Assembly: GCA_963730935.1 (NCBI GenBank)
Contig: CAVSTP010000003.1
Location: 608,001 to 672,000, forward strand
Source of the DNA: an uncultured Nitrospiraceae bacterium
GTDB lineage: Bacteria > Nitrospirota > Nitrospiria > Nitrospirales > Nitrospiraceae
DNA: 64,000 nucleotides
Reading direction: 5' to 3'
The notes beneath the pieces were generated by a model. That model made no database searches. It was not told the DNA's origin and saw nothing but the letters and a program-made list of their open reading frames with translations. The position numbers and the translations under genes were made by a program. Below are positions 20,330 through 59,289 of the stretch, one piece after another (positions within the stretch are counted from its first letter, which is position 1; the number at the start of each line of letters is the position of its first letter).

Positions 20330-20377
20330 AACTGTCAGTTTTGACAGTTCCTCTGATCGCAGCCTCGTGGCTACACT
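20330..20377 (+). promoter_or_regulatory. Regulon palindrome site 1 plus -10 element
   Basis: AACTGTCA-GTTT-TGACAGTT (core 20332-20347); TACACT at 20372. Confidence 0.75.
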
Positions 20378-20408
20378 AGTCGGCCATTCTCTTCACGGAG
20401 GAGGGAGT

Positions 20409-20891
20409 GTGTTTGACAAGGCACTTCACGATGCTGCCCCAGGGAAGGTGCGTATGGCCTCATGTGATGATGAGGTGCGGTGGCTGCGGCTCACGATCTG
20501 CGCGTTAGTGGTAGGTGTATGTGCCGGTTGCGCCGGAGGGTCGCCTCAACAGGACGCCTCCTGGAAGGTGGTGCCGATCACCGAAGTTGGGATGGTCGTC
20601 GGTGAATGGGAAGGGCTGGTGAAGAAGGATCATGCGTCGCTCCCCGAAGGATCGGTTCGTCTCATGATTCGGGCCAACGGCACCTATCTGTTTGCGGGTC
20701 AAACCGCGTCCAGAGCGGCTGTTGGGTCCGGAGATCTCGAAACGCGCGACGGCCGATTGGTCGGAGACACAGAGAAGCGCGCCGTCACATTTACGTTGTA
20801 CGACCATAAGGGTAAAGCCGTGGTGCTCGTCGAATCGATTATCCATGAAACAGGAGAGCGCTATCGCGGTGAATTTACCAAGGTGCAGTGA
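20409..20891 (+). CDS. Hypothetical lipoprotein
   Basis: GGAGGAGGG RBS before GTG 20409 (alternative ATG 20454); hydrophobic stretch with CAGC lipobox. Confidence 0.65.
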   Translation: MFDKALHDAAPGKVRMASCDDEVRWLRLTICALVVGVCAGCAGGSPQQDASWKVVPITEVGMVVGEWEGLVKKDHASLPEGSVRLMIRANGTYLFAGQTASRAAVGSGDLETRDGRLVGDTEKRAVTFTLYDHKGKAVVLVESIIHETGERYRGEFTKVQ

Positions 20892-20976
20892 GGATCGTAG
20901 GGCATCTGAATTCTGGGATCTTGCATAGAGGACGACGCTTGAACGAAGATGGCGTTGTCATCTGTGAGGCACTGCC

Positions 20977-21603
20977 ATGCGAATGTTTCGAACGAACAGA
21001 GTCTCCCTCTGGCCGTTCATCGGTTTCACGGTTGTGCTGCTCTGGCAGGGATGCAGCGGAGACCGATACAAGACGGTGGTCGATGCGGCGGGAGCCGGAC
21101 TCAGCTCCCTAACCCTGGCGGACGACTATCGACACCAGCGACGCATACAGGAAGTCTTAGTTGCAGAGCCTAAGTTCGCCGGCCTCGTGCTGACAGCCTA
21201 TGTCTTCATGGATCACGGCTATGTTGTCGGCCATGTGCATAGTCCCGAGCAGGCCGAAGCTGTGTACAAGACGGCGAGGAAGGTGGAAGGTCTCAGATCG
21301 CTCAACGCGTTTCTCCCGGTCAAACATACTTCGACCGTCGATACCGTTGGGAAGGTCTCACCGGATGCCGCATTGAAGGCGCAAGTCGAGGCAGAGCTTG
21401 CGCGCACTCCTGGTGTGGTGGACACGCGCGTGCACGTCGAAATCCTAGACGACCGTGCGATTTTGCTCGGTGTCGTGTCAGGTAGCGAAGAAAAGACACG
21501 TGCGGAACATGCCGCGGCATCCACCCTCGGCGTCAAGCGCATCATCAACTGGTTGTTGTTGCCGGAAACTGAGTATTTGGCGATCCGGTCACAGGTGTTT
21601 TAG
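20977..21603 (+). CDS. Dual BON-domain lipoprotein (OsmY/DolP-like)
   Basis: Lipobox WQGC; DAALKAQVEAEL...VHVEI...AILLGVV...LGVKRIIN BON pattern. Confidence 0.8.
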   Translation: MRMFRTNRVSLWPFIGFTVVLLWQGCSGDRYKTVVDAAGAGLSSLTLADDYRHQRRIQEVLVAEPKFAGLVLTAYVFMDHGYVVGHVHSPEQAEAVYKTARKVEGLRSLNAFLPVKHTSTVDTVGKVSPDAALKAQVEAELARTPGVVDTRVHVEILDDRAILLGVVSGSEEKTRAEHAAASTLGVKRIINWLLLPETEYLAIRSQVF

Positions 21604-21615
21604 AGACGCGGTGTT

Positions 21616-22863
21616 ATGGAGAAGATCGGGGTGGAGAAGATCGGTTTCCACAGTGTCCGTCGCGCACAGCCCCGGCTGTTTCTTTCGCTCCTGGCGGTAG
21701 TCCTCGTTGCCGGCTGCGTGGAGCCGACCCGCGAAGCCTTACGGGAGCCGACGGGCACGCCGATGCCGCGGATCACGTTACTGACCTACAACACGCTGCA
21801 CGGACTTGAGCCAAGCGGGATGACGGTCAAGGCGAGCGAATCGCAGGAGGTCCGGCAAGCGAGGCTCGACCTCCAATTTCGCCAACTTTCTCTCATCCAG
21901 CCCGACGTCATGCTTCTTCAAGAAGTCAATCCCCTTCCGGAAATGGCCGAGCGATACATCGCGGCGATGAAGCGCTCCGGTTTGGACTACCAATCGGTTC
22001 ATCAGGTGGATGCCTGCGGAGTGCGTTTGGCTCCTGGACTTGCGGTCGTCCCGGGCTTGAACAATGGCTTAGCCGTGCTCGCCAAGGCTCCTCTGCGCCT
22101 ACGAAAAGTGGAGGGTCTCAAGCTCAGTGGAGGCTTCGGGCGCTGCGACGACTACATGGGCTTTCAAACGGGGGAGCTGCGGTATGCACTGATCGCTGAA
22201 GTCGAAAATCCCAATACGGGCAGGAAACTCTTGACGGTCAGTCTGCATCTGCATTCCGGGATTGAACGGAATGCGTTTTTCATACAAAAAATTCAGGATG
22301 CGGTGAAGGCGGGAAAGGCGCGGCAGGAGGATTTTGCAGAGATCGTGGCCGCGATGGAGCAGGACCAGGAACGACGGCTCGAAGAGATTCGTCTGCTCGT
22401 GAAGGAGATCGACACGCTGTATGCGAAAGGGTCCTATCTGGGTGTCCTCGTGGGAGGAGATTTCAACTTTGAGCCCGACGACCCGGAATACCGTGAACTC
22501 GAACGGGCGGGCCTCACAGACACGTACGCGATGGCGCATCCTGAAACGGAAGTCTACAGTCTTGATCCTCAGCGAAACGTGATCGCAGGCCATGGCATAC
22601 AAGAAGTGCCATCGACGCTTCGTGCGGCAATGAGACGGCTTCCTGAAAGCCAGCAGCAGAAAATTCTCGAAGGCTATCAAAAGGGGATCACTCAGGCGAG
22701 GCGGGTGGACTTTTTGTTCCTCATGAGAAAGCCATCCGACAGTGCGACAGGCTGTTTCCGGCAGGAACTGTTCGGCCAATCCGAGGCGGTTTCAACCGCA
22801 CCAGGATCAGATCACTATGGTGTGCTCGTCACGTATATGGCCGATGCATCCCAGTGCGGCTAG
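21616..22863 (+). CDS. Endonuclease/exonuclease/phosphatase-family lipoprotein
   Basis: Lipobox VAGC; LTYNT, LLQEV, GGDFN, RVDF, SDHYGV. Confidence 0.85.
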   Translation: MEKIGVEKIGFHSVRRAQPRLFLSLLAVVLVAGCVEPTREALREPTGTPMPRITLLTYNTLHGLEPSGMTVKASESQEVRQARLDLQFRQLSLIQPDVMLLQEVNPLPEMAERYIAAMKRSGLDYQSVHQVDACGVRLAPGLAVVPGLNNGLAVLAKAPLRLRKVEGLKLSGGFGRCDDYMGFQTGELRYALIAEVENPNTGRKLLTVSLHLHSGIERNAFFIQKIQDAVKAGKARQEDFAEIVAAMEQDQERRLEEIRLLVKEIDTLYAKGSYLGVLVGGDFNFEPDDPEYRELERAGLTDTYAMAHPETEVYSLDPQRNVIAGHGIQEVPSTLRAAMRRLPESQQQKILEGYQKGITQARRVDFLFLMRKPSDSATGCFRQELFGQSEAVSTAPGSDHYGVLVTYMADASQCG

Positions 22864-22890
22864 GAACCTCGTATGTGATGGAGGATCCAC

Positions 22891-23226
22891 ATGTCATTGC
22901 CGTTGCATGAAATTATCGGCTTCGTGGCGGGATTCGGGACGACATTTGCCGCCCTGCCAGATCTCATCGCTATGCTCAAGCGGCGATCCTGTGAAGGCAT
23001 GAATCCGACGATGGCCGCGATCATGGGCACGTTTCAAATCGTGTGGGTGTATTACGGGATTTTGGTCGAGTCGAGGCCGGTGATCGTGTGGAATATCATC
23101 GCCGTGGGGATCAATTTTTTAGTCGTCGGGGCCTATTTCTACTTTGCTTCTACCACACCGCGGCACACTCCGTTGATCAATCATCCCGCGCCGGGTGAGA
23201 GCACGAAGAATTCCCCCGGCAGATAG
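22891..23226 (+). CDS. SemiSWEET / PQ-loop family transporter
   Basis: 3 TM helices; IGFVAGFGTTFAALPDL, WVYYG, PVIVWN. Confidence 0.8.
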   Translation: MSLPLHEIIGFVAGFGTTFAALPDLIAMLKRRSCEGMNPTMAAIMGTFQIVWVYYGILVESRPVIVWNIIAVGINFLVVGAYFYFASTTPRHTPLINHPAPGESTKNSPGR

Positions 23227-23260
23227 AGACGACAGAAGAACCAGAAGGTGGAGGAGGTTC

Positions 23261-23833
23261 ATGCATCGTCGCCGAATCGCGTGTATAGTGATAGGCCTCG
23301 CGCTCAGCCTCTCGGCCTGTAACGAGTTCAAGGTGCAGACCGACCATGACTCTACCGCAGAGTTCAGCGCATTCAAGACATTCGCCTTTGCGGGACTTGC
23401 CGACGTCAATAAAGGCGGGATCTACGACAATTCATTGACGCAAAAACGCGTCGAGACGGCCGTCGTTCGAGAGCTCAGTGCGAAAGGACTTCGTCAAGTC
23501 GGATTGGATGAACATCCTGATCTCTTGGTCCATTACTGGTTCAACGTCCAGGATAAACAACGCCTTGAAAGCGGCGGCACGAGTGTTGGCGTGGCGCGCG
23601 GTCCTTACGGCGGCTATGGATGGGGGGCAGGGTATGGCGGAGGGGTCACGACGGTTGAATACAGAGAAGGCACGTTGATTCTGGATCTCGTCGAACCGGC
23701 TCAAAAGCAGCTCGTGTGGCGGGCCACGATCGTAGGTACATTGCAGGATTCGACGAAAGACAACGTTGAGCTGGGAAACAAGGCGATTGCCAAAGCATTC
23801 GAAAGTTACCCACCGTCCCCCAAAGCACCGTGA
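23261..23833 (+). CDS. DUF4136-family lipoprotein
   Basis: Lipobox LSAC; FSAFKTFAF, PDLLVHY, EYREGTLILDLV...LVWR, FESYPP. Confidence 0.85.
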   Translation: MHRRRIACIVIGLALSLSACNEFKVQTDHDSTAEFSAFKTFAFAGLADVNKGGIYDNSLTQKRVETAVVRELSAKGLRQVGLDEHPDLLVHYWFNVQDKQRLESGGTSVGVARGPYGGYGWGAGYGGGVTTVEYREGTLILDLVEPAQKQLVWRATIVGTLQDSTKDNVELGNKAIAKAFESYPPSPKAP

Positions 23834-23858
23834 ACTTTATTCAACAAAGGAGGGAGTC

Positions 23859-24578
23859 ATGAAACAAGTAGCAACTGATCGCGTTCACCGGATTGTGGCG
23901 TGCGCCGGCGTTATTGCGGCGTTGACCCTTGGGCTGGTCGTGACGCCAGTCCAGGGTCTGGCGGAGGACGCTAGCGATGCCAAAGCCATCGTCGATCAAG
24001 CCGAAGTCTCGCTGAAGAATTTTTTGAGTGACCCGGACATGAAATGGTTCGGCAGTCACCTACAAGAGGCAAAGGGTGTCTTCATCGTGCCAAACCTCAA
24101 GAAGGGAGCCTTCATCTTCGGTGTGGAAGGGGGCACCGGCGTCGTGCTTGCGCGCGATGAAAAAGGCGGTGCATGGAGCGAACCGGTATTTTATGAAACC
24201 TCAGCAGCCAGCTTTGGCCTCCAGGCAGGAGCACAGACATCAGAGGCCATCGTGTTGATCATGACGCAGAAAGGTGTGGATTCCCTCTTGGCGAACAAGC
24301 TCACGCTTGGTGCCGACGGATCTGTTGCAATAGGACCGAAGGGGATGGGAGCCGACACAAATCTCAAGGCGGATTTCGTGACGTTCACGCGTGCGAAGGG
24401 ATTATATGCGGGAGTCTCGTTCGACGGAGCGTCGATCAGGACAAGGGATGACCTCAATACTGCCTATTTCGGAGAGGATGTTCGTCCGTCGGACATTATC
24501 ATTGCCCACAAGGCCAAACCCAATCCGCATTCCAATGAATTGCACGCCATGCTGAAAACGGCCAACGCTAAACCGTAG
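23859..24578 (+). CDS. Periplasmic SYLF/Ysc84 lipid-binding domain protein (paralog 1)
   Basis: Signal peptide; AKGVFIVP, KGAFIFG.EGG.GV, SFGLQAG, RAKGLYAGVSFDG. Confidence 0.9.
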   Translation: MKQVATDRVHRIVACAGVIAALTLGLVVTPVQGLAEDASDAKAIVDQAEVSLKNFLSDPDMKWFGSHLQEAKGVFIVPNLKKGAFIFGVEGGTGVVLARDEKGGAWSEPVFYETSAASFGLQAGAQTSEAIVLIMTQKGVDSLLANKLTLGADGSVAIGPKGMGADTNLKADFVTFTRAKGLYAGVSFDGASIRTRDDLNTAYFGEDVRPSDIIIAHKAKPNPHSNELHAMLKTANAKP

Positions 24579-24653: not shown

Positions 24654-24698
24654 CTGTCACTTTTGACAGTTCCTGCCTTAGCTGAATGGTGCTAGCGT
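24654..24698 (+). promoter_or_regulatory. Regulon palindrome site 2 plus -10 element
   Basis: CTGTCA-CTTT-TGACAG (24654-24669); TAGCGT at 24693. Confidence 0.75.
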
Positions 24699-24745: not shown

Positions 24746-25450
24746 ATGCCTCACATGTCCTGGCGGTCCATGGTGCCTCTGATCGGCGTGGTGTTGGCTG
24801 CTGTCGTCACGGCGACAATGAGTCCAGCATACCTGGAAGCCTCGACCGAGCAGCAGCAACTTGTCGATAAAGCGAGGCTCACGGTGGAAGCGTTTGCCAT
24901 GGACCCGCAACAAGAGGACGTTCGGCAGTGGGTGTCGAGCGGCAAAGGCGTCTTCATCGTCCCACAGCTTCTTCGCGGCGCCTTCGTGTTTGGAGGTGCG
25001 GGTGGCGGCGGCATCCTGCTGATCCGCGATGAGAAGTCGGGCGAATGGTCGCAGCCGGCCTTCTACAACATCGGCGCGGTCAGTTTCGGTCTCCAGGCCG
25101 GCGCCGACACGTCCGAGTTGGTTGTGATCGTGAGAACCCAGAAGGGGCTGGAGGAGTTCTATCGCTCGGATTTCAAACTAGGCGCCGACGTGGGAGTATC
25201 CGTCGGACCGCTGGGCAGCAGCGCGGCCATGGGAGGCATCGCTGCGGATCTCGTGTCCTTCGGCCGCAGTAAAGGCGCATTCATGGGCATGGCGCTCGAC
25301 GGCGCCGTGATCGCAGTCTCCGACGACTCCAACTCAACGTATTATGGAAAGGCTGTCCGCCCGACGGACATTCTTGTGAAAAAGTCAGTGACAAACCCCG
25401 CATCGGCTCAATTGCGCGATGCCATCTCGGTGTTGACGAAGGAGAAGTAA
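24746..25450 (+). CDS. Periplasmic SYLF/Ysc84 domain protein (paralog 2)
   Basis: Signal peptide; KGVFIVP, GAFVFGGAGGGG, SFGLQAG, SKGAFMGMALDG. Confidence 0.9.
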   Translation: MPHMSWRSMVPLIGVVLAAVVTATMSPAYLEASTEQQQLVDKARLTVEAFAMDPQQEDVRQWVSSGKGVFIVPQLLRGAFVFGGAGGGGILLIRDEKSGEWSQPAFYNIGAVSFGLQAGADTSELVVIVRTQKGLEEFYRSDFKLGADVGVSVGPLGSSAAMGGIAADLVSFGRSKGAFMGMALDGAVIAVSDDSNSTYYGKAVRPTDILVKKSVTNPASAQLRDAISVLTKEK

Positions 25451-25483
25451 CCAGGTGTACCCTCAACAGAAAGGACGCACATC

Positions 25484-25969
25484 ATGATGAAGGTCGTATC
25501 GTTGTTCTTCACCGGGCTGATGCTTTGTACTGTCTCGGCCATTGCACAGCCGGCATCGGATACCAGCGCCGATACCAATATGGAAATTTTGAAGCAGAAG
25601 CTGAAGGCGGACAAAAAGCTCCTGGTGGCGGGGAATATGGATCTCTCGGATGCGGAGGCCAAAAAGTTCTGGCCGGTCTATGACGCCTATCAGAAGGACT
25701 TGGAACAGGTAAATCAGAAACTGGGACAAACGATCAAGGAGTATGCGGAGGCCTTCAACAAAGGCTCGGTCCCGGACAATACGGCGAAGAAACTGCTCAA
25801 CAACGCGTTGTCGGTGGAGGAGCAGGAAACCAAGCTGAAACGAACCTACGCGGAAAAGCTCGAGAAGGTCCTCCCGTTCAACAAGGTTGCGCGCTACATC
25901 CAGATAGAAAACAAGATCCGGGCCTTGATCAAGATGGAGTTGGCACAGCAGATTCCTCTCGTCTATTGA
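25484..25969 (+). CDS. Periplasmic helical protein, Spy/CpxP-like (paralog A)
   Basis: Signal peptide; KKLLVAGNMDLSDAEAKKFWPVYDAYQ...ARYIQIE. Confidence 0.7.
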   Translation: MMKVVSLFFTGLMLCTVSAIAQPASDTSADTNMEILKQKLKADKKLLVAGNMDLSDAEAKKFWPVYDAYQKDLEQVNQKLGQTIKEYAEAFNKGSVPDNTAKKLLNNALSVEEQETKLKRTYAEKLEKVLPFNKVARYIQIENKIRALIKMELAQQIPLVY

Positions 25970-26031
25970 GGAAGAGATTGTCCGACAAAGGTTGATTCTC
26001 TCGCCGGTGCGAGAGGGAGGAAGGAGCCGTC

Positions 26032-26640
26032 ATGAAGCCGCTTGCTGTGACCGGCCTGTGTCTTCTGTGTCTCGTCGTGGGTGCTGGTTCTGCGCTGAAT
26101 GCCGAAGAGCCCACGCTGAAGGTCGTCCACATTCGTCCGAGCCTTGACACCGAGAAGCTTCAATACATTCTGTCCACGGAACGCAAATCGGTGTTCGAAC
26201 GGAATATGAACCTGGACGAGAAGCAGAGCGAGGTCTTTTGGGGCGTCTATCATCGATACGAGAAGGAAAAAGAGCAGCTCGAGGCCAAGCGGCTCCGTCT
26301 GTTGGGCACGTACATCGAAAAATATGACTCGCTCAGCAACGACGATGTCATGAAGATCGTCAAGCAGTCCGGCGAGAATCAGCAGGCCGACCTTGCGTTG
26401 CGTCAAAAATACTTCCAGATCTACAGCAAGAAGTTGAATCCCATGGCAGCCGCCCGTTTCATGCAACTCGATGATATCGTCGGGATGGTCACACGCCTTG
26501 CGATCCTGGGCAATCTGCCTTTGATCGGGGATGTTCCTCACGTCGCTGCCTCTGGATCACCCGATGAAAAGTCATCGCAGACCCCGAATCCGGAAACAGC
26601 GCCGACGGTGGACCAACCCTCGACGGAAACAGCGAAATAG
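26032..26640 (+). CDS. Periplasmic helical protein, Spy/CpxP-like (paralog B)
   Basis: Signal peptide; RKSVFERNMNLDEKQSEVFWGVYHRYE...ARFMQLD. Confidence 0.7.
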   Translation: MKPLAVTGLCLLCLVVGAGSALNAEEPTLKVVHIRPSLDTEKLQYILSTERKSVFERNMNLDEKQSEVFWGVYHRYEKEKEQLEAKRLRLLGTYIEKYDSLSNDDVMKIVKQSGENQQADLALRQKYFQIYSKKLNPMAAARFMQLDDIVGMVTRLAILGNLPLIGDVPHVAASGSPDEKSSQTPNPETAPTVDQPSTETAK

Positions 26641-26674
26641 TGCTCGCTCATTTATGGAACTGCGAGGAGGCCTC

Positions 26675-27142
26675 ATGCGTCGTTCACGATTGCTGTTCAT
26701 CGTGATAGGGGTGCTGTTCATGACCGGTGAAGCGTTTGCCGGCATGGATGTGTTCGTCTATCCCAGCAAGGGTCAGACTAAGGAGCAACAGGAACAGGAT
26801 GAGTTCAGTTGTTATAAATGGGCCAAAGAACAAACGGGATTCGATCCAACTCAGCCGGTGCAGCAGGCGGCGGCGCCTCCCCCTCAGGGCGGCGCCGCGA
26901 AGGGCGCGGCAAAAGGTGCCGCGATCGGCGCGATTGGAGGCGCCATCGGCGGTGACGCAGGCAAAGGAGCGGCGATCGGCGCAGGGGTAGGTGCAGCGGG
27001 AGGAGCAGCGCGCCGGCGAAAAGGCGAGCAGCAACAAGCCGCCGCCCAACAAAAAGCAAAGCAAGAGTACAATGCGGAGGTAGACGGCTATAAGCGGGCC
27101 TTTTCAGCCTGCATGACGGGGCGAGGGTACACCGTCAGTTGA
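26675..27142 (+). CDS. Glycine-zipper family exported protein
   Basis: VYPSKGQTKEQQEQDEFSC, GxxxG repeats, CMTGRGYTV. Confidence 0.85.
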   Translation: MRRSRLLFIVIGVLFMTGEAFAGMDVFVYPSKGQTKEQQEQDEFSCYKWAKEQTGFDPTQPVQQAAAPPPQGGAAKGAAKGAAIGAIGGAIGGDAGKGAAIGAGVGAAGGAARRRKGEQQQAAAQQKAKQEYNAEVDGYKRAFSACMTGRGYTVS

Positions 27143-27176
27143 TCGGCGACTATTCCTCGACCGACAGGAAAGCGAA

Positions 27177-28622
27177 TTGAGAACTCACTCACCTTCTTCA
27201 ACACACACATGGTTCGGCATCCTCTGCTGTTCGATGTGGCTCTCGGCTTTCTGCGCCGCAAGCGCTTGGGCGACCTCGGAGCTTAACATTCCTAAGCCCA
27301 CCGATCCGCTCATGCCTGCGCCTCCGCCGCCGGCCTTAGAGGCGTCCGCCGTCAATCTTGAAGTTCGGCTCACGGCCGAAGGCCTGGCTGCCGCTGTCGA
27401 TGAGGGCTTTCCTCAGGTCGCGGCGCGCGAGAACGATTGGAGTGAGGCCGTCACGCTGGGAGCACAGGAGGACATTCGGTTCTTGTATCGCGTCGTCAGA
27501 GGATCGTTTCGATACCGTATGGATCATGATCAGTTTCGGGTGTCGTTTGACCAGGTGCGCTATCGAGTTTGGGCGCGCAGGAATCAGGGTGACGGGTTCG
27601 TCGAAGGTCGCTGCGGACATGGCGATGACCCGCCCAGACGGCTGAATCTTTCCGCCCGGTCGGCACTGTCCTGGTCCGACCGATGGCGCCTGCAATCGCA
27701 GACGACGTTCGACGAACCTGTGTTTGTCGAGCCCTGCCTGCTCACGGGACTCGATGTCGATGCGACACCTGTGTTGAAAGCGGTGTTGCAACCGAGGCTC
27801 GCGGCGCTGGCGCAGAGTATCGACCGGATCGTGCGCGACCGGACGGAAGCCAAACAGCGCGCGGAGACAGTGTGGCAGAAGTTACAGGAGCCCGTCGAGT
27901 TCGCTCCCAACCAGTGGCTCCAGTTTCATCCACGCGACGCCCGGGTCAGTCCGATCACCTCAAACGGCACGCTCGTGCTCCACACGTCCGTGAATCTGGT
28001 CGTGGAGCCCAGGATCGTCAGTGGCCAGAAACCTGATCACACGACAATCCCGCTGCCACCGCTGCAATTGACTCCTCTTCCGTTGGAAGGCTTCCATCTC
28101 GCCCTTCCGATCACCGTCGACTACGGACGCATCAATCAACGGCTTGAGGAGGAGATGATTGGACAGGAGTTCCAGACGCCTGTCGGCGATACCTTGAGAG
28201 TCGAAGGCGTGCAACTCTATGGAAGCGGCGACAAGCTGATTCTCGCGCTCCGGGTGTCAGGAGGTGTGAACGGAACCGTGTACGCGACCGGGACACCGGT
28301 GTTCGATGAGGGGCTTGGGATGCTGCGGTTCGTCGATCTGGATTTCACACTGGACACCCGTAACGTGTTGGTGCAATCGGCAAACTGGATGTTCCATCAA
28401 GACATCTTGTCGAGCCTGAGGTCCCAGGCCTACATTGATCTCTCCGGCCAGCTGCAAACGCTTCGTTCCCGCCTCACGAGTGCCCTGACGCGAGAGATGG
28501 GGCCGAACGCCCGGCTTGAAGGAGAAGTCACATCCCTTCGGCCCCGTGGCGTGTACCCGACGGCAGGAGGTGTGGAAGTGCATATCATCGCGGAGGGCTC
28601 CATGTGGGTGGAATTGCAGTGA
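27177..28622 (+). CDS. DUF4403-family exported protein
   Basis: 481 aa, signal peptide, beta-rich; WQKLQEP...WLQFHP, GTVYATGTPVFD. Confidence 0.7.
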   Translation: MRTHSPSSTHTWFGILCCSMWLSAFCAASAWATSELNIPKPTDPLMPAPPPPALEASAVNLEVRLTAEGLAAAVDEGFPQVAARENDWSEAVTLGAQEDIRFLYRVVRGSFRYRMDHDQFRVSFDQVRYRVWARRNQGDGFVEGRCGHGDDPPRRLNLSARSALSWSDRWRLQSQTTFDEPVFVEPCLLTGLDVDATPVLKAVLQPRLAALAQSIDRIVRDRTEAKQRAETVWQKLQEPVEFAPNQWLQFHPRDARVSPITSNGTLVLHTSVNLVVEPRIVSGQKPDHTTIPLPPLQLTPLPLEGFHLALPITVDYGRINQRLEEEMIGQEFQTPVGDTLRVEGVQLYGSGDKLILALRVSGGVNGTVYATGTPVFDEGLGMLRFVDLDFTLDTRNVLVQSANWMFHQDILSSLRSQAYIDLSGQLQTLRSRLTSALTREMGPNARLEGEVTSLRPRGVYPTAGGVEVHIIAEGSMWVELQ

Positions 28623-28669
28623 GCCGAGTCTCCAATCTCCCGACGTTCTTCAATGAACGAGAGGTATCT

Positions 28670-29173
28670 ATGAACGTGTCCAAGCGTCTCGTTGCTGCGG
28701 TGTGTCTTGCGTGCCTCGGATACCTGGTTCAGACCGTTGAGCCGGCTCCGGCGCGTGGAGCGGGGGAAGGCATGTCCGAATCTGATTTTGAGCTCATGCG
28801 CTCCGATATCAGGACGAAGAAGGCCAGCCTCATTGCCGACCGCATGAAGTTCACGGACCGGGAAGCGTCGGCGTTCTGGCCAGTGTATCGTCAGTATGAA
28901 GCCGATCTTGCGGCGATCAATGACAAAAAGGTGTCGATCATGAAGGACTATATGAGCCGCCATGAGGCATTGACCGAGCAGCAAGCCAAGCAACTTGCGG
29001 AGGACGTGTTTGACGTAGACCAGAAGACGCTAGATCTCCGCGAAAAATGTTTTGGTGCGCTGGAAAAGGCCATCCCAGCGAAGACGATCGTCCGATGGCT
29101 GCAGCTTGAGCGGCGACTGCAGCTCCTGGTCGATGCGCAGCTTGCCAAAGATCTTCCCGTGATTCAGAAATAG
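28670..29173 (+). CDS. Periplasmic helical protein, Spy/CpxP-like (paralog C)
   Basis: Signal peptide; KKASLIADRMKFTDREASAFWPVYRQYE...VRWLQLE. Confidence 0.7.
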   Translation: MNVSKRLVAAVCLACLGYLVQTVEPAPARGAGEGMSESDFELMRSDIRTKKASLIADRMKFTDREASAFWPVYRQYEADLAAINDKKVSIMKDYMSRHEALTEQQAKQLAEDVFDVDQKTLDLREKCFGALEKAIPAKTIVRWLQLERRLQLLVDAQLAKDLPVIQK

Positions 29174-29673: not shown

Positions 29674-29719
29674 TTCTTATCATTTACATCGCTGTCGGCG
29701 ATACTGGCAAAAGTAACAG
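29674..29719 (-). promoter_or_regulatory. Regulon palindrome site 3 plus -10 element
   Basis: Minus strand CTGTTA-CTTT-TGCCAG (29719-29704); TGaTAAGAA with hexamer at 29679-29674, upstream of the receiver-only regulator. Confidence 0.6.
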
Positions 29720-50154: not shown

Positions 50155-50170
50155 CTGAGTCTCGTCAAGC

Positions 50171-52294
50171 ATGAATGACAGACCACGCACTCTGCGCAGC
50201 GATTCTCCCGCTCGTTCAGAACGATCAGCCCTGTGGTCTCAAGGCGCGAGTGCCCCTCTCGGCGCGACCGTCACGGAAGGCGGTGTCAATTTCAGCATCT
50301 CCTCACGCGACGCCACCCACCTCGAACTGCTCTTCTTCGATCAGGCGGATGACCCGAAGCCATCGCAGATCTTCGAACTGGATCCGCGCGGGCACCGCAC
50401 GTATCACTACTGGCATGTCTTCGTGCCGGGCGTTTGCCCAGGACAACTCTACGGCTTCCGCGCTCACGGTCCCTTCGATCCCGCGCGGGGAATGCGTTTT
50501 GATCCTACTAAAGTGCTGCTCGATCCCTATGGTCGCGGTGTCGTCGTTCCGGAACAATACAGCCGTATCGCTGCCGGTCAGGATGGCGACAATGCTGCGA
50601 CAGCGATGAAGAGTGTGGTGGTGGATCCGTCCGCATATGATTGGGAGAATGAGCTGCCGCTCAGGCATCCTGACGCTCGGACCATCATCTACGAGATGCA
50701 CGTGCGCGGCTTTACGCGGCACCCAAGGTCGGGAGTCGCCGAACACGAGCGCGGCACCTATGCCGGCCTGATCGAAAAGATTCCCTATCTGCAGGAGTTG
50801 AGCATCACGGCCGTCGAGCTGCTGCCGATATTCCAGTTCGACGCTCAGGACTCCCCGCCGGGCAAAGTCAATTATTGGGGTTACGCACCGGTGTCCTTCT
50901 TTGCGCCCCATCAGGCCTATAGCTCTCGTCGAGAGCCTCTCGGGGCGGTCAACGAATTTCGCGACATGGTCAAAGCGCTCCATCGAGCCGGCATCGAGGT
51001 CATTCTCGATGTCGTCTTCAATCACACGGCCGAAGGAGACGAATGCGGGCCAACCCTCAGTTTCCGCGGCCTGGACAACAATGCGTACTACATCCTCGAG
51101 GAGGACCGATCGCATTACGCCAATTACACGGGCACCGGCAACACGCTGAATGCGAACCATCCCGTGGTCCGCCGCATGATCGTGGACAGTCTGCGTTATT
51201 GGGTGCAGGAGATGCACGTGGATGGATTCCGGTTCGATCTCGCGTCGATCCTGACGCGTGATGAGAACGGTCAGGTGATGCCAAGTCCACCGGTCTTGTG
51301 GGATATCGAATCAGACCCGTCGCTCGCCGGCACGAAACTGATTGCGGAAGCCTGGGATGCCGCCGGCCTCTACCAGGTCGGCAGTTTCATCGGAGATTGC
51401 TGGAAGGAATGGAACGGGCGCTTCCGGGACGACGTCCGCAGTTTCTTCCGCGGCGAAGAGGGATCGTTGGGCCGGTTTGCCGATCGCTTGGTCGGCAGCC
51501 CGGAAATTTACGCGCACAAGCAGCGCGAGCCGGAGCAAAGCGTAAACTTCGTGACCTGTCACGACGGCTTCACGATGAACGACCTGGTCTCCTACAACGG
51601 AAAGCACAACGAGGCGAACGGTGAAGGCAACCGCGACGGCGCCGACGACAACCGGAGCTGGAATTGCGGCGTTGAAGGGCCGACCGATGATGCGGCCATC
51701 GAAGAGCTCCGAAACCGCCAGGTAAAGAATTTCCTCACTGTCACGCTGCTCTCGATCGGCGTCCCGATGATTCTGATGGGCGATGAGGTGCGAAGGACGC
51801 AGCATGGCAACAACAATGCCTACTGCCACGATAACGAGCTCAACTGGTTCGATTGGACCCTGGTGGCCAAACATGCCGATGTCCATCGGTTTGTGACACT
51901 GCTCAACCAACGACGGATTTTGCGGCCTGTCGAGCACGAACGCCAACGGATGACTCTCGCTCAGCTCATCCAGCAGGCCAATAAATCGTGGCATGGAGTG
52001 AAAGTTGGGCAGCCTGACTGGAGTCCGACTTCTCACAGCGTGGCGCTGAACGCGGAGATCAAACACGAAGGATTTGTAGGGTATTTTATCTTCAACGCTT
52101 ACTGGGAACATCTGGAATTCGAGCTGCCGATGCCCCCTGGCAGCCCATGGCGCCGGTGGATTGATACCGCGCTCGACTCGCCGATGGATATTGTTCCGTG
52201 GCGGACCCTGGTTCCCGTTACCGGTCTTGCCTATCAGGTCCAACCGCGGTCGGTGGTCGTATTGGTTGCCGACCTCACGGGCACTTCAAGATGA
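50171..52294 (+). CDS. glgX: Glycogen debranching enzyme (isoamylase)
   Basis: NYWGY, DVVFNHT, DGFRFDLA, IAEAWD, NFVTCHDGF, NNNAYC. Confidence 0.95.
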   Translation: MNDRPRTLRSDSPARSERSALWSQGASAPLGATVTEGGVNFSISSRDATHLELLFFDQADDPKPSQIFELDPRGHRTYHYWHVFVPGVCPGQLYGFRAHGPFDPARGMRFDPTKVLLDPYGRGVVVPEQYSRIAAGQDGDNAATAMKSVVVDPSAYDWENELPLRHPDARTIIYEMHVRGFTRHPRSGVAEHERGTYAGLIEKIPYLQELSITAVELLPIFQFDAQDSPPGKVNYWGYAPVSFFAPHQAYSSRREPLGAVNEFRDMVKALHRAGIEVILDVVFNHTAEGDECGPTLSFRGLDNNAYYILEEDRSHYANYTGTGNTLNANHPVVRRMIVDSLRYWVQEMHVDGFRFDLASILTRDENGQVMPSPPVLWDIESDPSLAGTKLIAEAWDAAGLYQVGSFIGDCWKEWNGRFRDDVRSFFRGEEGSLGRFADRLVGSPEIYAHKQREPEQSVNFVTCHDGFTMNDLVSYNGKHNEANGEGNRDGADDNRSWNCGVEGPTDDAAIEELRNRQVKNFLTVTLLSIGVPMILMGDEVRRTQHGNNNAYCHDNELNWFDWTLVAKHADVHRFVTLLNQRRILRPVEHERQRMTLAQLIQQANKSWHGVKVGQPDWSPTSHSVALNAEIKHEGFVGYFIFNAYWEHLEFELPMPPGSPWRRWIDTALDSPMDIVPWRTLVPVTGLAYQVQPRSVVVLVADLTGTSR

Positions 52295-52324
52295 ATATTC
52301 GTAGTGTTTTGAGAGGAGTGAGCT

Positions 52325-53140
52325 ATGGCAAAAGACGGTAAGGGAGACGGCAACGGCAATTCCAAACTCAAGCGCAAGGAATACGAGAAGGAGCTGCGCC
52401 GGCTGCAGGCCGAATTGTGCCACCTTCAGGCCTGGGTAAAGCACAAGGGGCTTCGAATCATTATCCTGTTCGAAGGCCGCGATGGCGCTGGGAAAGGGGG
52501 GACCATTCGCGCCATTACCGAGCGTGTCAGTCCCCGTGTGTTCCGCGTGGTGGCGTTGCCTGCCCCCTCCGATCGCGAAAAGACGCAGATGTACTTACAA
52601 CGCTACATGACGCACTTCCCGGCGGCGGGTGAGATCGTGATTTTTGACCGGAGCTGGTACAACCGGGCAGGAGTCGAACATGTCATGGGCTTTTGCACCA
52701 AGGAGCAGTACAAAGCCTTTCTCGAACATGCGCCGACGGTCGAGGGCTACATCACCAAGGCAGGCATCCGACTGGTCAAGTACTGGCTCGAGGTCAGCAA
52801 TGACGAGCAAGAACGGCGCTTCCAGGCTCGCCTCGATGACCCGTTACGCCAGTGGAAACTCAGTCCGATAGATCTTCCTTCGCGGGAGAAATGGTACGAG
52901 TACTCGCGCGCACGCGACCGGATGCTGGAGGCCACGGACTCGAAGCACGCACCCTGGCATCTCGTGCGGTCGGACAATAAGCGAAGGGCGCGATTGAATA
53001 TTATCAAACACTTCTTGAGTTCTATCCCCTACAAAAAGATGCCCTATAAGAAGGTCAAGCTGCCCAAGCGATCGCACAAGCATGAATATGACGACCAGGC
53101 GACGCTGAAGGGAAGGAAGTTCATTCCCGAGGTGTACTGA
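52325..53140 (+). CDS. ppk2: Polyphosphate kinase 2 (single domain)
   Basis: EGRDGAGKGG, FDRSWYNRAGVE, WKLSPID. Confidence 0.95.
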   Translation: MAKDGKGDGNGNSKLKRKEYEKELRRLQAELCHLQAWVKHKGLRIIILFEGRDGAGKGGTIRAITERVSPRVFRVVALPAPSDREKTQMYLQRYMTHFPAAGEIVIFDRSWYNRAGVEHVMGFCTKEQYKAFLEHAPTVEGYITKAGIRLVKYWLEVSNDEQERRFQARLDDPLRQWKLSPIDLPSREKWYEYSRARDRMLEATDSKHAPWHLVRSDNKRRARLNIIKHFLSSIPYKKMPYKKVKLPKRSHKHEYDDQATLKGRKFIPEVY

Positions 53141-53150
53141 GGAGGCGCAC

Positions 53151-55958
53151 ATGCCTACACGAGCGACAGGAAGGGAGCAGGCCACGAAGGGGAAGCAGAC
53201 GTACCTGACCGTCGAGCATGAACGGTTGTCCACCGATGGACAGGCATGGAAACGCTGGGGCCCCTACCTGAGCGAGCGTCAGTGGGGAACGGTCCGGGAG
53301 GACTACAGCGAAGGCGGGGACGCCTGGAATTATTTTACCCACGACCACGCCCGCTCGCGCGCCTACCGCTGGGGCGAAGACGGCCTCGCCGGTTTGTCCG
53401 ACGAAGAGCAGCGACTGTGCTTTGCCCTGGCCCTCTGGAACGGCAGGGACCCCATTCTCAAGGAACGCCTCTTCGGCTTGACCAACAGCGAAGGCAACCA
53501 CGGAGAGGATGTCAAAGAATACTACTTCTACCTCGACAGCACGCCAACGCACTCCTACATGAAGTTTCTCTACAAGTATCCTCAGGCCGCCTATCCCTAT
53601 GATGAGCTGGTCCACACGAATAGGCAGCGGAGCCGGGAGATACCGGAATACGAATTGCTCGATACCGGGGTCTTCAACGACGACCGCTACTTCGACGTCT
53701 TCGTCGAATATGCGAAGGCTGGACCAGATGATGTTCTCATTCAGATCACGGCAGCGAACCGGGGGCCGGAGGCGGCTGATCTTCACATCTTCCCGACGTT
53801 GTGGTTCCGGAACAATTGGGCTTCTTGGCAATCCAGGCCTGTCGAGAAACCGTCATTGAAACAGGTGAAGGGACCCAGAGGGACCAAGATCGTAGCGGCC
53901 ACCCATCCAACTTTGGGCGAATACCTGCTGTACTGCGAGGGGGAAGCGCCGCTGCTCTTTACCGACAACGAAACCAACAACGAACGGCTCTTTCCTGAAT
54001 ATCCCAACGCCAGTCCCTATGTGAAAGACGGCATCAATAATTACGTCGTCCAAGGTCAACAGCATGCCATCAATCCCGACCAAACCGGCACGAAGGTCTC
54101 GGCGCACTACCGGTTCAAGATTGCCCCCGGCGGGACCGCGACGGCGAAACTGCGTTTGGTTCGGCAGAACGTGCCGGCGGCCAAAGGCGCCAATCCCACA
54201 AAGGCAGCAGAAAAAACGAAGGTGGCCTCCCCATTCGGCCAAGGCTTTAATGACATCATGCAAGATCGGTTGCGGGAAGCCGATGAGTTCTACCGCGCGG
54301 TGACCCCTCCTTCGGTCACGCCCGATGAGGCGAACGTCATGCGGCAGGCCTTGGCCGGCATGCTCTGGAGCAAGCAGTTCTACTATCTCGATGCCGATCA
54401 GTGGTTGGAAGAACATTTTGCGCATCCTCTTCACAGCGGAAGCCGAGAGTTTCGAAACCGCGAGTGGTTTCACATGGTCAACCGCGACATCATTTCGATG
54501 CCGGACAAATGGGAATATCCCTGGTATGCCGCCTGGGATTTGGCGTTTCATACGCTGCCGATTTCGATTGTGGATCCCGAGTTCGCGAAGCACCAGATGA
54601 AATTAATGTTTCACGGGTATTACCTCCATCCGAGCGGCCAGATTCCGGCCTATGAGTGGAACTTCAGCGACGTGAATCCGCCTGTGCACGCCTGGGCCAC
54701 CCTGTTTCTGCACCGGACCGAGCAGGCCCTGCGCGGCGAGGGGGACATTGATTTTCTCAAGTCGGCCTTCAACAAGCTCCTGCTCAACTTCACCTGGTGG
54801 GTGAATCGGAAAGATCGTTTCGGCAAGAACGTCTTCGAGGGCGGCTTTTTAGGTCTCGACAACATCGGTGTGTTCGACCGAAGCGCTCCCTTGCCGACGG
54901 GCGGTCACCTCGAACAGGCAGACGGCACCGCGTGGATGGCCTTGTTCAGTCAGAACATGCTCGAAATCGCGGTAGAAATTGCCCCTCATGACCGCACATA
55001 CGCCGACATGGTCGAAAAATTCGTCGAGCATTTTCTCTACATTGCTGCGGCCATGAATGGGTCCGGCTCCGACGGCATGTGGGACGAAGAAGATGGGTTT
55101 TACTACGATCTCCTGCGATTGCCCGATGGACACTCCACCAGACTGAAAGTCCGCTCCATGGTGGGTCTGCTGCCGCTTTGCGCGACCACCGTCGTTGAAG
55201 ACTGGCAGCGAGAGCGGGTGCCCGAGGTGGCCGCCACGCTTCAGCAGCGTATGGAACAGATGCCTGAACTCCTGACGTTCATCCACAAGACAGGGCGGGC
55301 GCACCGTGGAGTGGCCGACCGCGGCATTCTGGCGCTGGTCAATGAAGAGCGGTTACGTCGCATTCTCTCGAAGATGCTGGACGAGAACGAGTTTCTGAGC
55401 CCCTACGGCATTCGCTCGCTCTCCAAGTTTCATCAACAGCATCCGTTCGTATTTCATGTCGGGGGGCAGGTCTACCGAGTGGACTACCTTCCGGCCGAAT
55501 CCAACACGGGGATGTTCGGCGGCAACTCCAACTGGCGTGGGCCCGTTTGGATGCCAGTGAATGCCATGATCATCCGGGCGCTGCTGTCGTACTACCTCTA
55601 TTATGGTGACAACTTCAAAATCGAATGCCCCACTGGGTCCGGCCGGATGATGAACCTGTTCGAGGTCAGCAAGGAAATTGCCAACCGCCTTACGGGAATT
55701 TTTCTGCGGGACGCACAAGGCAAGCGTGCGGTGTACGGTGGAACGGAAACATTCCAGTCCGATCCGCATTGGCGCGATTATCTTCAGTTCTACGAGTACT
55801 TCCACGGGGACAACGGCGCCGGGCTGGGCGCCAACCATCAGACCGGCTGGACGGGTTTGGTCGCGAAGATGATCGAACTCTACGGCCGACTGGATCCACA
55901 AATGCTGCTCAAGGAAGGAAAACGCGGCGCGCATGCAGGAGGAAAAACGGGAAAGTGA
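53151..55958 (+). CDS. MGH1-like / GH63 glycoside hydrolase (paralog 2)
   Basis: Same motifs as 31941..34730, with long identical peptide stretches. Confidence 0.88.
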   Translation: MPTRATGREQATKGKQTYLTVEHERLSTDGQAWKRWGPYLSERQWGTVREDYSEGGDAWNYFTHDHARSRAYRWGEDGLAGLSDEEQRLCFALALWNGRDPILKERLFGLTNSEGNHGEDVKEYYFYLDSTPTHSYMKFLYKYPQAAYPYDELVHTNRQRSREIPEYELLDTGVFNDDRYFDVFVEYAKAGPDDVLIQITAANRGPEAADLHIFPTLWFRNNWASWQSRPVEKPSLKQVKGPRGTKIVAATHPTLGEYLLYCEGEAPLLFTDNETNNERLFPEYPNASPYVKDGINNYVVQGQQHAINPDQTGTKVSAHYRFKIAPGGTATAKLRLVRQNVPAAKGANPTKAAEKTKVASPFGQGFNDIMQDRLREADEFYRAVTPPSVTPDEANVMRQALAGMLWSKQFYYLDADQWLEEHFAHPLHSGSREFRNREWFHMVNRDIISMPDKWEYPWYAAWDLAFHTLPISIVDPEFAKHQMKLMFHGYYLHPSGQIPAYEWNFSDVNPPVHAWATLFLHRTEQALRGEGDIDFLKSAFNKLLLNFTWWVNRKDRFGKNVFEGGFLGLDNIGVFDRSAPLPTGGHLEQADGTAWMALFSQNMLEIAVEIAPHDRTYADMVEKFVEHFLYIAAAMNGSGSDGMWDEEDGFYYDLLRLPDGHSTRLKVRSMVGLLPLCATTVVEDWQRERVPEVAATLQQRMEQMPELLTFIHKTGRAHRGVADRGILALVNEERLRRILSKMLDENEFLSPYGIRSLSKFHQQHPFVFHVGGQVYRVDYLPAESNTGMFGGNSNWRGPVWMPVNAMIIRALLSYYLYYGDNFKIECPTGSGRMMNLFEVSKEIANRLTGIFLRDAQGKRAVYGGTETFQSDPHWRDYLQFYEYFHGDNGAGLGANHQTGWTGLVAKMIELYGRLDPQMLLKEGKRGAHAGGKTGK

Positions 55959-57302: not shown

Positions 57303-57352
57303 GAAAAAGAGGCTTGAAGATCACTCAGACCTCGCTACCAGTACACGAGAAA

Positions 57353-58349
57353 ATGACTATCAGACTCTGGTCTATAGTCGCCTTGGTTCTCAGTACTGCG
57401 GCGAGTCCGGTCACTTGCCGAGACGATGATCGAGGGCCGTGGCAATGTGTTCTATACGGATGATGTGGGCATCTTCTCAGCCACCCGGCGGCTGACCCGC
57501 GACGGCGACCCGACCCAGCCTGCCCTCGATACCAACCTTACCAACAAGGGATCCGATGTAGTGTTCGAGCCGGATGCCAAACTAGCGACCACGTTTGACA
57601 ATCGGTTTGGGAAGACCGAGTTGAACGTACGCGGGCAAGGCTTCATCTATGCGGACAACCCGCGTTTCAATCATGGAACCATGAGGGTTGAGGCCATCCA
57701 GGCCTTCGCGCCAGCCACACGTGTCCGGCTTCGGTACTACTATGCGCCGAACCTGTTTCTTGGCGAAAATGAAGACAGGCAACCAGGTGCAGAGGGGTTG
57801 GTGGATGAGACCGTCACCAGCCATATCTGGTCCGCGCGGGTGGAGCAGCGCCTGACGCAGACCGTAGAAGTGCGCCTCATGACGAGATATGGGATTCGCC
57901 GCTACAACGATGCGTTTGCCCAGCGGGACGTGGATTTCTGGACCATCGGTCCCCATCTCGAATGGCGTGTCTCCAAGCGGCTCACGCTAGGCCTGAGCTA
58001 CCATTATGAGCGCGGCCTCGCCGAGGGCCGGAACCAACCTCAGCTCAGGGACGACGTCTCGTATATTAATAATTACGTAAGCGCCGATGTGGACGCCGAG
58101 CTCATGGAGCGATTGTCGTTGTCGTTGGCCTTCCATTATGAACGAAACAATTGGACGAGCGGGATTCTTGGAGATGAGCGCAGGGGCGCCCACGAGGACG
58201 TCATTCAGGGGGACGTCGTGCTGATCCGCGAGTTAACGGATACGCTGCGCGTGTATGTGGGATTCCAAAGATCGAGTCGCAAACAGAGCTTCGAAGCAGA
58301 AGCCATCAAGAATACGAATGTCGGCATCGGAATTGGTAATCTCTTCTAA
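57353..58349 (+). CDS. Putative outer-membrane beta-barrel protein (frameshift near 57415)
   Basis: Signal peptide from ATG 57353 shifts into ORF 57426; amphipathic strands; C-terminal Phe. Confidence 0.65.
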
Positions 58350-58358
58350 CTCCCTGCT

Positions 58359-58934
58359 TCACATGCCGAGCATGCCCTTCTTCAGATCCTCTGTGGGTGG
58401 CTTCGGCCCCAGGAAGATTGAGAAGACAGCATCGCTGAAGCCCTTCCCTCCGAAGGCGCCCAGCTCCTTGTTCCCGACCTGTAGCATTGTGCCCTTTCCT
58501 GGCAGGTAGGTAAACGTCACCGTGTCGCCTTCCTTCACGTCGGGGATGAGCGCGAGCATCTTATCGAACGCAGCCTTCTGTCCGGTCTTGTCTTTCGCGT
58601 TCCCCTCGAAGCCAGATTGGAGGGCCTCCACGAGCTGCGCCTTGGTCAGGTCGCGCAGGAAATGCATGCGGATGGCCTTCGCCTGGTCGGCCGCCAGGAT
58701 CGCGCCTGCGTCCTTCGAGGGCGATTCGAGGTAGAGCCCCCCTACGTAGACCTTGAACACGGACTTTTTCCTGAGGCCCAAACCGTTCAGCTTCAGTGTC
58801 AAATCGCCGGACTTGAGCGTGTCAGGAAGCGTTGCGCCCGCCAGTTCGCCGGCCAGGGCGGTGTCGAGCATCGATACGGCCAAGATAAACGGGACAGCGG
58901 CGCGAAATAGTCTCGTCACGGTACAGCTTTTCAT
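58359..58934 (-). CDS. Periplasmic chalcone-isomerase-like protein
   Basis: Signal peptide; LKLNGLGLRKK..FKVYVGGLYL, IFLGPKP..EDLKKGMLG. Confidence 0.85.
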   Translation of the reverse strand: MKSCTVTRLFRAAVPFILAVSMLDTALAGELAGATLPDTLKSGDLTLKLNGLGLRKKSVFKVYVGGLYLESPSKDAGAILAADQAKAIRMHFLRDLTKAQLVEALQSGFEGNAKDKTGQKAAFDKMLALIPDVKEGDTVTFTYLPGKGTMLQVGNKELGAFGGKGFSDAVFSIFLGPKPPTEDLKKGMLGM

Positions 58935-59273
58935 GGTTCTGCTCTCCTTAATGTGATGTTTGCCTTGGAGGCCCCTTCCAGTGGTGTAAAAGCGAAACCT
59001 TGCCCTCACTCACTTTCCCGTAAAAGCTGTCAGTAGGAAAGGAAACCCTTGAAGAATGTCTGGGCGGGGTTCCGGTGCCTAGAATTCATAAGGCAGGCAC
59101 GCTAACAAGAAATGTCGTGAAATGGCAATCACACCCAACGGCTTCATGTATTGGTCTACGCCAATGGGAAAATACGGCAAGATTAGTTAAAACCGGGCGA
59201 TGCGGTGCGCCAGCACGATATCTTCCTCAGAACTCCTTCTTAGGGTAGCCGGCCGATCCGCTTACGGGACCCA

Positions 59274-59289
59274 CTGTTACTTCTGACAG
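59274..59289. promoter_or_regulatory. Regulon palindrome site 6
   Basis: (A)CTGTTA-CTTC-TGACAG(T) in the divergent intergenic region; the -10 assignment is less clear. Confidence 0.6.

Follow-up and report, generated by a model that had tools for sequence, protein, structure and literature searches.

The genome of an uncultured Nitrospiraceae bacterium (assembly GCA_963730935.1) contains, on contig CAVSTP010000003.1 at positions 608,001 to 672,000, a stretch of 64,000 nucleotides that is referred to here as the window and whose own numbering is used below. Six copies of a 16-base palindrome with the consensus CTGTCA-N4-TGACAG are found in the window, and the gene of a response regulator (29811 to 30467, minus strand), which is proposed here as the protein that binds them, lies between the third and the fourth copy. 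An earlier note on this DNA had listed the six sites, had described all of them as intergenic and had seen none in the intergenic regions of the first 20 kb. A pattern scan allowing up to two mismatches, combined with gene calls, bears this out: the six sites are at the coordinates given there, all are intergenic, and zero matches with up to two mismatches occur before position 20332. The base composition of the window (GC content 0.57 to 0.61) gives no sign of a foreign island, and scans of these 64,000 nucleotides for Rfam families and tRNA genes gave no hits.

The exact sites start at 20332, 24654 and 40531, those with one mismatch at 31767 and 59274, and the one with two mismatches at 29704. 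Three exact matches compare with 0.01 expected, and none of 100 shuffled sequences reaches three. The looser pattern CTGT-N8-ACAG occurs five times against an expectation of 0.61, a count that is also reached in none of 100 shuffles. With up to two mismatches, six matches compare with 2.46 expected, and five of 100 shuffles reach six; this count alone is weak, and the weaker sites therefore need other support.

The first candidate operator (20332 to 20347, plus strand) is exact, reads CTGTCAGTTTTGACAG, carries the -10-like hexamer TACACT at 20372 to 20377 and precedes a gene unit at 20409 to 24578. The second (24654 to 24669, plus strand), also exact, has TAGCGT at 24693 to 24698 and precedes the unit at 24746 to 29173; a counterpart stands ahead of a Ysc84 gene in the related loci L117 and L023. 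The fourth (31767 to 31782, plus strand, one mismatch) sits in the divergent region between the operon of the regulator and its kinase and a unit that starts with a GH63-like gene, towards which its hexamer TAAAGT (31806 to 31811) is directed. Its counterparts are found in loci L023 to L033 and, ahead of GH63, in L117. The fifth (40531 to 40546, plus strand) is exact, is accompanied by TAGAGT at 40570 to 40575 and precedes a 15-kb sugar-reserve operon. Assembled metatranscriptome contigs from soil and rhizosphere that match the region 40300 to 42300, with small word shares, cover coding parts from about 40700 only and leave the promoter uncovered.

The third candidate operator (29704 to 29719, minus strand) reads CTGTTACTTTTGCCAG on the minus strand, has TAAGAA at 29679 to 29674 and is located between the regulator gene and a gene for a stand-alone receiver-domain protein (29295 to 29648, minus strand). 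Despite its two mismatches it was retained, because its position is conserved in relatives. A site with at most one mismatch, 39 to 100 nucleotides past the regulator gene and ahead of the stand-alone receiver gene, is present in six of the 13 Nitrospira-type loci. Four diverged relatives (L103, L116, L117 and L118) have preserved the arrangement of kinase, regulator, site and stand-alone receiver, in this order, and in each of these the site has the T and the -10-like hexamer at 23 to 24 nucleotides facing the receiver gene. The five hexamers that had been named in the earlier note are all present, at 23 or 24 bases from the palindrome.

The sixth site (59274 to 59289, one mismatch) has no -10-like hexamer at the usual spacing. 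It is flanked by a chalcone-isomerase-like gene (58359 to 59009, minus strand) on one side and by a small exported open reading frame and patatin-like genes on the other (plus strand), and a paralogous chalcone-isomerase-like and patatin pair on contig C4 likewise has a site. Two further features were observed here. A perfect 10-bp inverted repeat (ctattgtggg, 8 nucleotides, cccacaatag) at 59304 to 59331, between this site and the ribosome-binding site of the small exported open reading frame (start at 59343), may serve as a further operator or form a hairpin in the leader. In addition, the patatin-like gene is divided into two open reading frames (59518 to 60099 and 60174 to 60878) and its C4 paralogue is a single 464-amino-acid frame (L022:763-2157), so that it may represent a frameshift or a split gene.

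The earlier note had confined the palindrome to an accessory block, which does not hold: about 30 sites are spread over the genome, and the pairing of regulator and operator recurs in other phyla, as described below. The genome (4.05 Mb in six contigs, 99.9% complete) contains 16 exact and 17 one-mismatch sites, 33 in all. From base composition, about 0.2 exact sites are expected by our own arithmetic, and the reversed control pattern gives none. The window holds five of the 33 sites, plus the two-mismatch site at 29704. Thirty of the 33 are intergenic on contigs whose gene calls cover 77 to 83% of each, and 24 of the intergenic sites lie upstream of at least one gene pointing away from the site. 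The gene calls come from a crude codon-usage caller, with three start codons shifted downstream of predicted promoters, and operon extents were inferred from strand and spacing. Genomic sites with two mismatches are background-like: 62 of 101 are genic, and among their 202 flanks the pattern TAnnnT occurs only three times at offset 23 and three times at offset 24. The motif at up to one mismatch marks a genome-wide set of promoters.

Some individual sites outside the window have unusual surroundings. Two overlapping adjacent dyads (G000:C4:1779032 and 1779047; L021:3001-3031) lie within a 2-kb stretch that has no called gene, and the exact site C3:725356 faces about 1 kb that is likewise free of called genes. 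Both stretches may contain small genes or non-coding RNAs under the same control. Within a called HlyD-type gene, an exact dyad (L019, local position 3001) is immediately followed by tandem repeats of a 20-nucleotide unit, ggtcattaaccacgcatccg (G000:C4:1522893 onward).

The distance between the palindrome and the -10-like hexamer is fixed. In the 66 oriented flanks of the 33 sites, TAnnnT is found 14 times at offset 23 and three times at offset 24, compared with 0 to 2 times at each of the other offsets between 0 and 69 and a background prediction of about 0.3 per offset. The spacing of 23 to 24 nucleotides is not due to chance. There is no enrichment of TAnnnT at offsets 15 to 17, which indicates that the TTGACA-like half-site inside the palindrome is not used as a -35 element, and the -35 window that a 17-nucleotide spacing would define matches TTGACA at a mean of only 2.37 of the six positions. 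On the side of the promoter, the palindrome is followed by a T in nearly all cases. Over all oriented sites the palindrome itself is asymmetric. Its promoter-proximal half, TGACAG, hardly changes from site to site, variation in the distal half falls on positions 4 and 5, and the promoter-facing strand is rich in T at the central four bases. With the hexamer taken as a -10 element at -12 to -7, the dyad would extend from about -51 to about -36 and be centred near -43.5. This agrees with the centre near -43 or -44 that had been predicted earlier from five sites of the window.

A dyad with promoter-like sequences on both sides was seen at G000:C3:537924 (L007:3001), between divergent genes for urease (gamma/beta) and a urea transporter. 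The hexamers TAGCCT and TAGAAT stand 23 nucleotides from it, one on each side, and this single site may drive transcription in both directions.

The regulator encoded at 29811 to 30467 consists of a receiver domain (PF00072 at residues 6 to 116, 82.7 bits) and a GerE/LuxR-type helix-turn-helix domain (PF00196 at residues 148 to 203, 55.4 bits), which is the architecture of the NarL/FixJ family. In its receiver, the D of 'vivlD' aligns with the D of 'ILMD' in VraR chains, which we take to be the phospho-acceptor aspartate. The recognition helix reads RTVAFHKYRVM, and its A and Y presumably sit at the positions of the base-contacting K188 and K192 of NarL. The adjoining gene in the same operon (30492 to 31613, minus strand) codes for a soluble histidine kinase with PAS, HisKA_3 and HATPase domains, which is the proposed sensor. 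No NCBIfam equivalog is reached at cut-off among the best 25 of 76 matches of the regulator, the highest being MctR with 146.9 bits against a required 300, and NarL scores 94 against 250. The named equivalogs considered also include UvrY/GacA, UhpA, RcsB and FixJ. Homologues of the regulator bear generic database names only. The closest solved structures are VraR/LiaR (5hev, E 1.4e-32), followed by DevR (3c3w, E 4.1e-21), DesR, NarL and RcsB, all of which are matches at the family level only. The genome has 21 matches to the GerE domain, and this regulator is the only one within 8 kb of a site with at most one mismatch. It lies 1.9 kb from the fourth operator, which is upstream of its own operon, and about 100 nucleotides from the third.

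The distribution of the motif within the genus follows that of the regulator. The exact motif is present in 17 of 24 genomes of the same genus and in one of 16 genomes of other families of the order, and the module is missing from seven of the 24. Of the 17 motif-positive genomes, 12 have a regulator with at least 55% identity, and the seven motif-free ones have none. In the latter, the best regulator matches show (R/K)TVEFHK in place of RTVAFHKY; this is the helix of a paralogue which the source genome possesses as well. In the motif-positive genome G022, a regulator copy with 49% identity and the helix RTVAFHKYQ lies directly beside a site.

The association extends to independent lineages. 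A homologue scan with one genome per species gave 80 loci, of which 13 are from Nitrospira, Nitrospiraceae or Nitrospirota (L023 to L035). The other 67 belong to Acidobacteriota, Planctomycetota and Gemmataceae, Gemmatimonadaceae (Gemmatimonadota), Binatia, Limnocylindrales (Chloroflexota-type), Eremiobacteraceae and others, with 55 to 65% identity; they were analysed as 20-kb loci, 1.155 Mb in total. These 67 loci contain 61 exact and 92 one-mismatch sites, compared with 0 and 3 for the reversed control, and sites are present in 52 of them. The promoter geometry is the same: among 306 flanks, TAnnnT occurs 56 times at offset 23 and 22 times at offset 24, and at most seven times elsewhere. A site lies within 500 nucleotides upstream of the regulator match in 28 of the loci, with 17 sites in the 25 to 75 nucleotide bins, and within 200 nucleotides past it in 14. 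In 13 loci, an oriented site is followed first by the open reading frame of the regulator itself. Loci of all these phyla share the helix RTVAFHKYR almost without change. The kinase homologue adjoins the regulator in 11 of the 13 Nitrospira-type loci and is found in 26 of the 67 others. The motif co-occurs with this subfamily of regulators, and is physically linked to it, in Nitrospira and in at least five other phyla.

Among the open reading frames downstream of sites in these other phyla, as annotated with Pfam (66 of 80), eight encode stand-alone receivers, in eight loci. The remainder include sortases, MscS channels, outer-membrane barrels, HlyD-type proteins, phosphoglucomutase and DUF4136, among others. 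Five whole genomes from other phyla contain 1, 6, 10, 1 and 6 exact sites, and the control gives none. One acidobacterial genome and 40 of its relatives were also compared, with a homologue cut-off of E<=1e-45. In this set, all four genomes with at least four sites have a homologue with at least 54% identity, and 25 of the 29 genomes that have no exact site also have no homologue. The association between regulator and motif is strong but imperfect.

Taken together, the palindrome is read here as the operator of the NarL/FixJ-type regulator at 29811 to 30467, which would be phosphorylated by the adjacent PAS-HisKA_3 kinase and would bind as a dimer centred at about -43.5 to activate promoters that have a -10 element and a poor -35 element. 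We give this reading a probability of roughly two in three. The 16-bp dyads bound by dimers of GerE-type helix-turn-helix proteins, such as NarL, ComA and the proteins of lux/las boxes, are typically of the 6-4-6 or 7-2-7 kind, and the geometry found here fits. The central idea of the earlier note, a single activator with a LuxR-type helix-turn-helix that co-controls the envelope-stress, glucosidase and glycogen-to-acetate units, is supported by every comparison made. The regulator had been the first candidate named there, and site proximity, phyletic pattern and linkage in other phyla make it the best supported candidate binder. From the same comparisons of sequence we infer binding by the regulator, activation rather than repression, and the positions of the transcription starts.

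Several observations weigh against this reading. Linkage is no proof of binding, and the dyad could be bound by some other protein encoded in the co-inherited module. The genomes of the genus are kin and not independent, and counts at this level overstate the support. Five motif-positive Nitrospira genomes have no regulator with at least 55% identity; three of them are 59%, 74% and 76% complete, and the other two are G022, with its 49% copy, and G014, which is 96% complete and has only two sites. In the source genome, three exact sites fall inside called genes, and the site at 59274 has no TAnnnT-type hexamer at 23 to 24 on either side. Outside the genus, 15 of the 67 loci have no site at up to one mismatch, four of the 29 site-free genomes of the acidobacterial set have a homologue of 54 to 57% identity, and seven genomes of that set with one to three sites have no homologue at E<=1e-45. 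A common target set across phyla was not found either: the mapping to site-linked genes of the source genome is limited to the regulator, the stand-alone receivers and a homologue of the protein encoded at 28604 to 29173.

The alternative that survives best is that the same regulator binds the dyad and mainly represses, or acts in both ways, so that the units are derepressed on its release. TTGACA-like hexamers within the dyad would suit such a role, as would the different layout of the site at 59274, which has possible -10-like hexamers nearer the dyad, and autoregulated regulators are often repressors. However, the dyad is placed wholly upstream of the -35 window and at a rigid distance from the -10 hexamer, the -35 window is poor and the offsets at which the half-site itself could serve as a -35 element show no peak. 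This is the layout known from class II-type activation, and repression is considered unlikely.

A different DNA-binding protein that travels with the module, either an unrecognised small regulator or a protein of the CRP/FNR type, might instead bind the dyad, with the regulator being just a neighbour. Co-occurrence and linkage cannot separate genes that are inherited together, and the 5-4-5 core TGTCA-N4-TGACA has the geometry of FNR-type boxes. On the other hand, the five CRP-family genes of the genome all lie more than 5 kb from any site, and no other DNA-binding family appears among the 66 site-downstream open reading frames of other phyla or, besides the regulator, among the window genes. 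Across phyla only the regulator (67 of 67, by design) and the kinase (26 of 67) recur around the sites, and in many loci sites are directly upstream of the regulator gene. A separate binder is improbable on these grounds, even a little more so than repression.

The earlier note had also offered a quorum-sensing LuxR protein encoded elsewhere, which would use the dyad as a lux/las box. The motif, as CTG(T/C)CA-N4-TG(A/G)CAG, resembles las/lux boxes, including a centre near -42.5. However, the autoinducer-binding domain (PF03472) stays below the Pfam cut-off throughout the genome, the best match having 21.6 bits against 23 in an 862-amino-acid frame that has no GerE domain, and the site-linked regulator has a receiver domain and no PF03472. 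This proposal was therefore rejected, its likelihood being very small. An identity as SOS boxes of LexA, or as a small repeat of the mobile or REP type, was set aside as well and has a negligible chance of being correct. Five of the six window sites do fit CTGT-N8-ACAG, but the LexA DNA-binding domain (PF01726) has no match in the genome, recA and the site closest to it on the same contig are about 586 kb apart, and the site-downstream genes include no repair genes. The site flanks are mutually unrelated besides the spaced -10, and the sites have only 16 bp in common, which is not the case in repeat elements.

The candidate target genes were annotated by Pfam and NCBIfam profile searches. The unit behind the first operator (20409 to 24578, plus strand) encodes a lipoprotein-like product, a BON protein, a member of the endonuclease/exonuclease/phosphatase family, a SemiSWEET-like protein, DUF4136 and Ysc84. 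The unit behind the second (24746 to 29173, plus strand) encodes another Ysc84 protein, two unknown exported-type proteins, a glycine-zipper protein, DUF4403 and an unknown protein of 189 amino acids. For two of the unknown proteins (25484 to 25969 and 28604 to 29173), homologues are encoded close to the regulator in other phyla, in 11 and 12 loci respectively, and language-model searches gave weak leads for both (scores of 0.84 to 0.87, below 0.9) to LTXXQ/Spy/CpxP-like periplasmic proteins. Behind the fourth operator (31941 to 38994, plus strand) are genes for a GH63-like glucosidase, an alpha-amylase-family enzyme, DUF2780, LEA_2, Ysc84 and an unknown protein. The 15-kb operon behind the fifth (40652 to 55958, plus strand) encodes class I fructose-bisphosphate aldolase, acetate kinase, phosphoketolase, glycogen phosphorylase, glucose-6-phosphate isomerase, an isoamylase-type debranching enzyme, PPK2 and a second GH63-like enzyme.

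Between the last two units, amid plus-strand stress genes, a lone gene for the gamma subunit of ATP synthase was observed on the minus strand (38998 to 39930), with no other ATP synthase gene adjoining it. It is present with about 90% identity in six Nitrospira-type loci.

Sites elsewhere in the genome are linked to further envelope and stress genes, namely Ysc84 genes together with a porin or a bestrophin-like protein, a unit with a universal stress protein, and genes for catalase-like, SDR and NmrA-like proteins. Other sites belong to genes for an EgtB-like DinB_2/FGE-sulfatase protein, sulfatases, a formylglycine enzyme, transaldolase and DUF3597, to the second chalcone-isomerase-like and patatin pair, to the divergent urease and urea-transporter promoter, and to a GAF-PAS-HisKA_3-REC hybrid kinase with a STAS protein. 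The site-linked gene families resemble the general stress regulons of other bacteria, and their function may be similar. The target sets of different phyla overlap little, and this function is therefore argued for Nitrospira only, from gene families alone.

The proposed system shares traits with several known ones. The boxes of LuxR, LasR and TraR are also recognised by GerE-type helix-turn-helix domains and are dyads of 16 to 20 bp with outer CTG...CAG, centred about 42 to 44 bp upstream and abutting or overlapping a weak -35 element, the corresponding geometry in the present case being predicted. In contrast, the input here would be a phosphorylated receiver and a HisKA_3 kinase and not an acyl-homoserine-lactone pocket, and the inner TCA/TGA and the T-rich centre are specific to the present family of sites. 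NarL (7-2-7) and ComA (6-4-6) have the same combination of REC and GerE domains, a HisKA_3 partner kinase and a 16-bp inverted repeat for a dimer; they differ in operator sequence, and no NCBIfam equivalog is reached. LiaR and VraR of Firmicutes provide the closest solved structures and are autoregulated NarL-family proteins that control envelope stress, but their kinases are of the membrane LiaS/VraS type, whereas the kinase here is a soluble PAS protein, and phyla and operator differ as well.

DosR/DevR with DosS/DosT is similar in having a NarL-family regulator, soluble GAF/PAS HisKA_3 kinases, autoregulation and, at many stress promoters, a palindromic box near -35. Its regulon likewise joins universal stress proteins and reserve metabolism, and the second, hybrid GAF-PAS-HisKA_3-REC kinase of the source genome (contig C1) has a site. 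The match to DevR is at the family level only (3c3w, below VraR), the target set is different and the box differs, that of DosR being GGGACT..AGTCCC. The gene content in Nitrospira also resembles that of the RpoS, SigB and EcfG regulons, with an OsmY-like BON protein, an OsmB-like glycine zipper, catalase-like protein, transaldolase, glycogen enzymes, universal stress protein and SDR/NmrA-type proteins. Unlike in those regulons, control would be exerted by a two-component activator at promoters with a sigma-70-like -10 and not by an alternative sigma factor. With regard to the class II sites of CRP and FNR, the difference is that none of the five family members is encoded within 5 kb of sites, although binding by a distant member is possible. 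The regulator is a further NarL/FixJ-type two-component protein, which would operate in the way of a lux/las-box activator, and it does not belong to the quorum-sensing, DosR, LexA or CRP families.

In the proposed mechanism, the soluble PAS-HisKA_3 kinase would phosphorylate the regulator. On the dyad, immediately ahead of a weak -35 element, the regulator would then form a dimer and recruit RNA polymerase, as class II activators, including those of the LuxR type, do. If it induces both its own operon and the stand-alone receiver, positive and negative feedback could result; the receiver is a putative feedback element, for example a phosphate sink. The role in Nitrospira would be that of a general stress, energy-starvation or dormancy programme. 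Such a programme might harden the envelope by means of Ysc84, BON, glycine-zipper, LEA_2 and DUF4136 proteins and porins, and might mobilise glycogen through phosphoketolase and acetate kinase for substrate-level formation of ATP. A bolder version would have the RTVAFHKYR subfamily and its operator act as the master switch of a stress, energy-starvation or dormancy programme in Nitrospirota, Acidobacteriota, Planctomycetota, Gemmatimonadota and other phyla that lack RpoS, with an operator that stayed unchanged across phyla, as a two-component counterpart of RpoS, SigB, EcfG and DosR. This extension is tentative, and the odds are somewhat against it.

A literature search, with subscription journals outside its coverage, found no description of the motif or of the regulator. 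Nitrospira species carry out nitrite oxidation in soils, waters and treatment plants, and few bacteria of soil and water are as abundant, or as hard to work with, as Acidobacteriota and Planctomycetota. To our knowledge, almost nothing is known about how these three groups switch on stress and survival programmes. The analysis names one regulator, sharply delimits its proposed operator to 16 bp, describes promoters of fixed layout and lists the targets, and the operator can be used as a marker in comparative genomics for reading regulons from metagenome bins. If the binding is true, this would be a new stress regulon in environmentally important bacteria. Its targets in Nitrospira tie envelope protection to the breakdown of glycogen, which would let these nitrite oxidizers make ATP in the absence of nitrite or oxygen.

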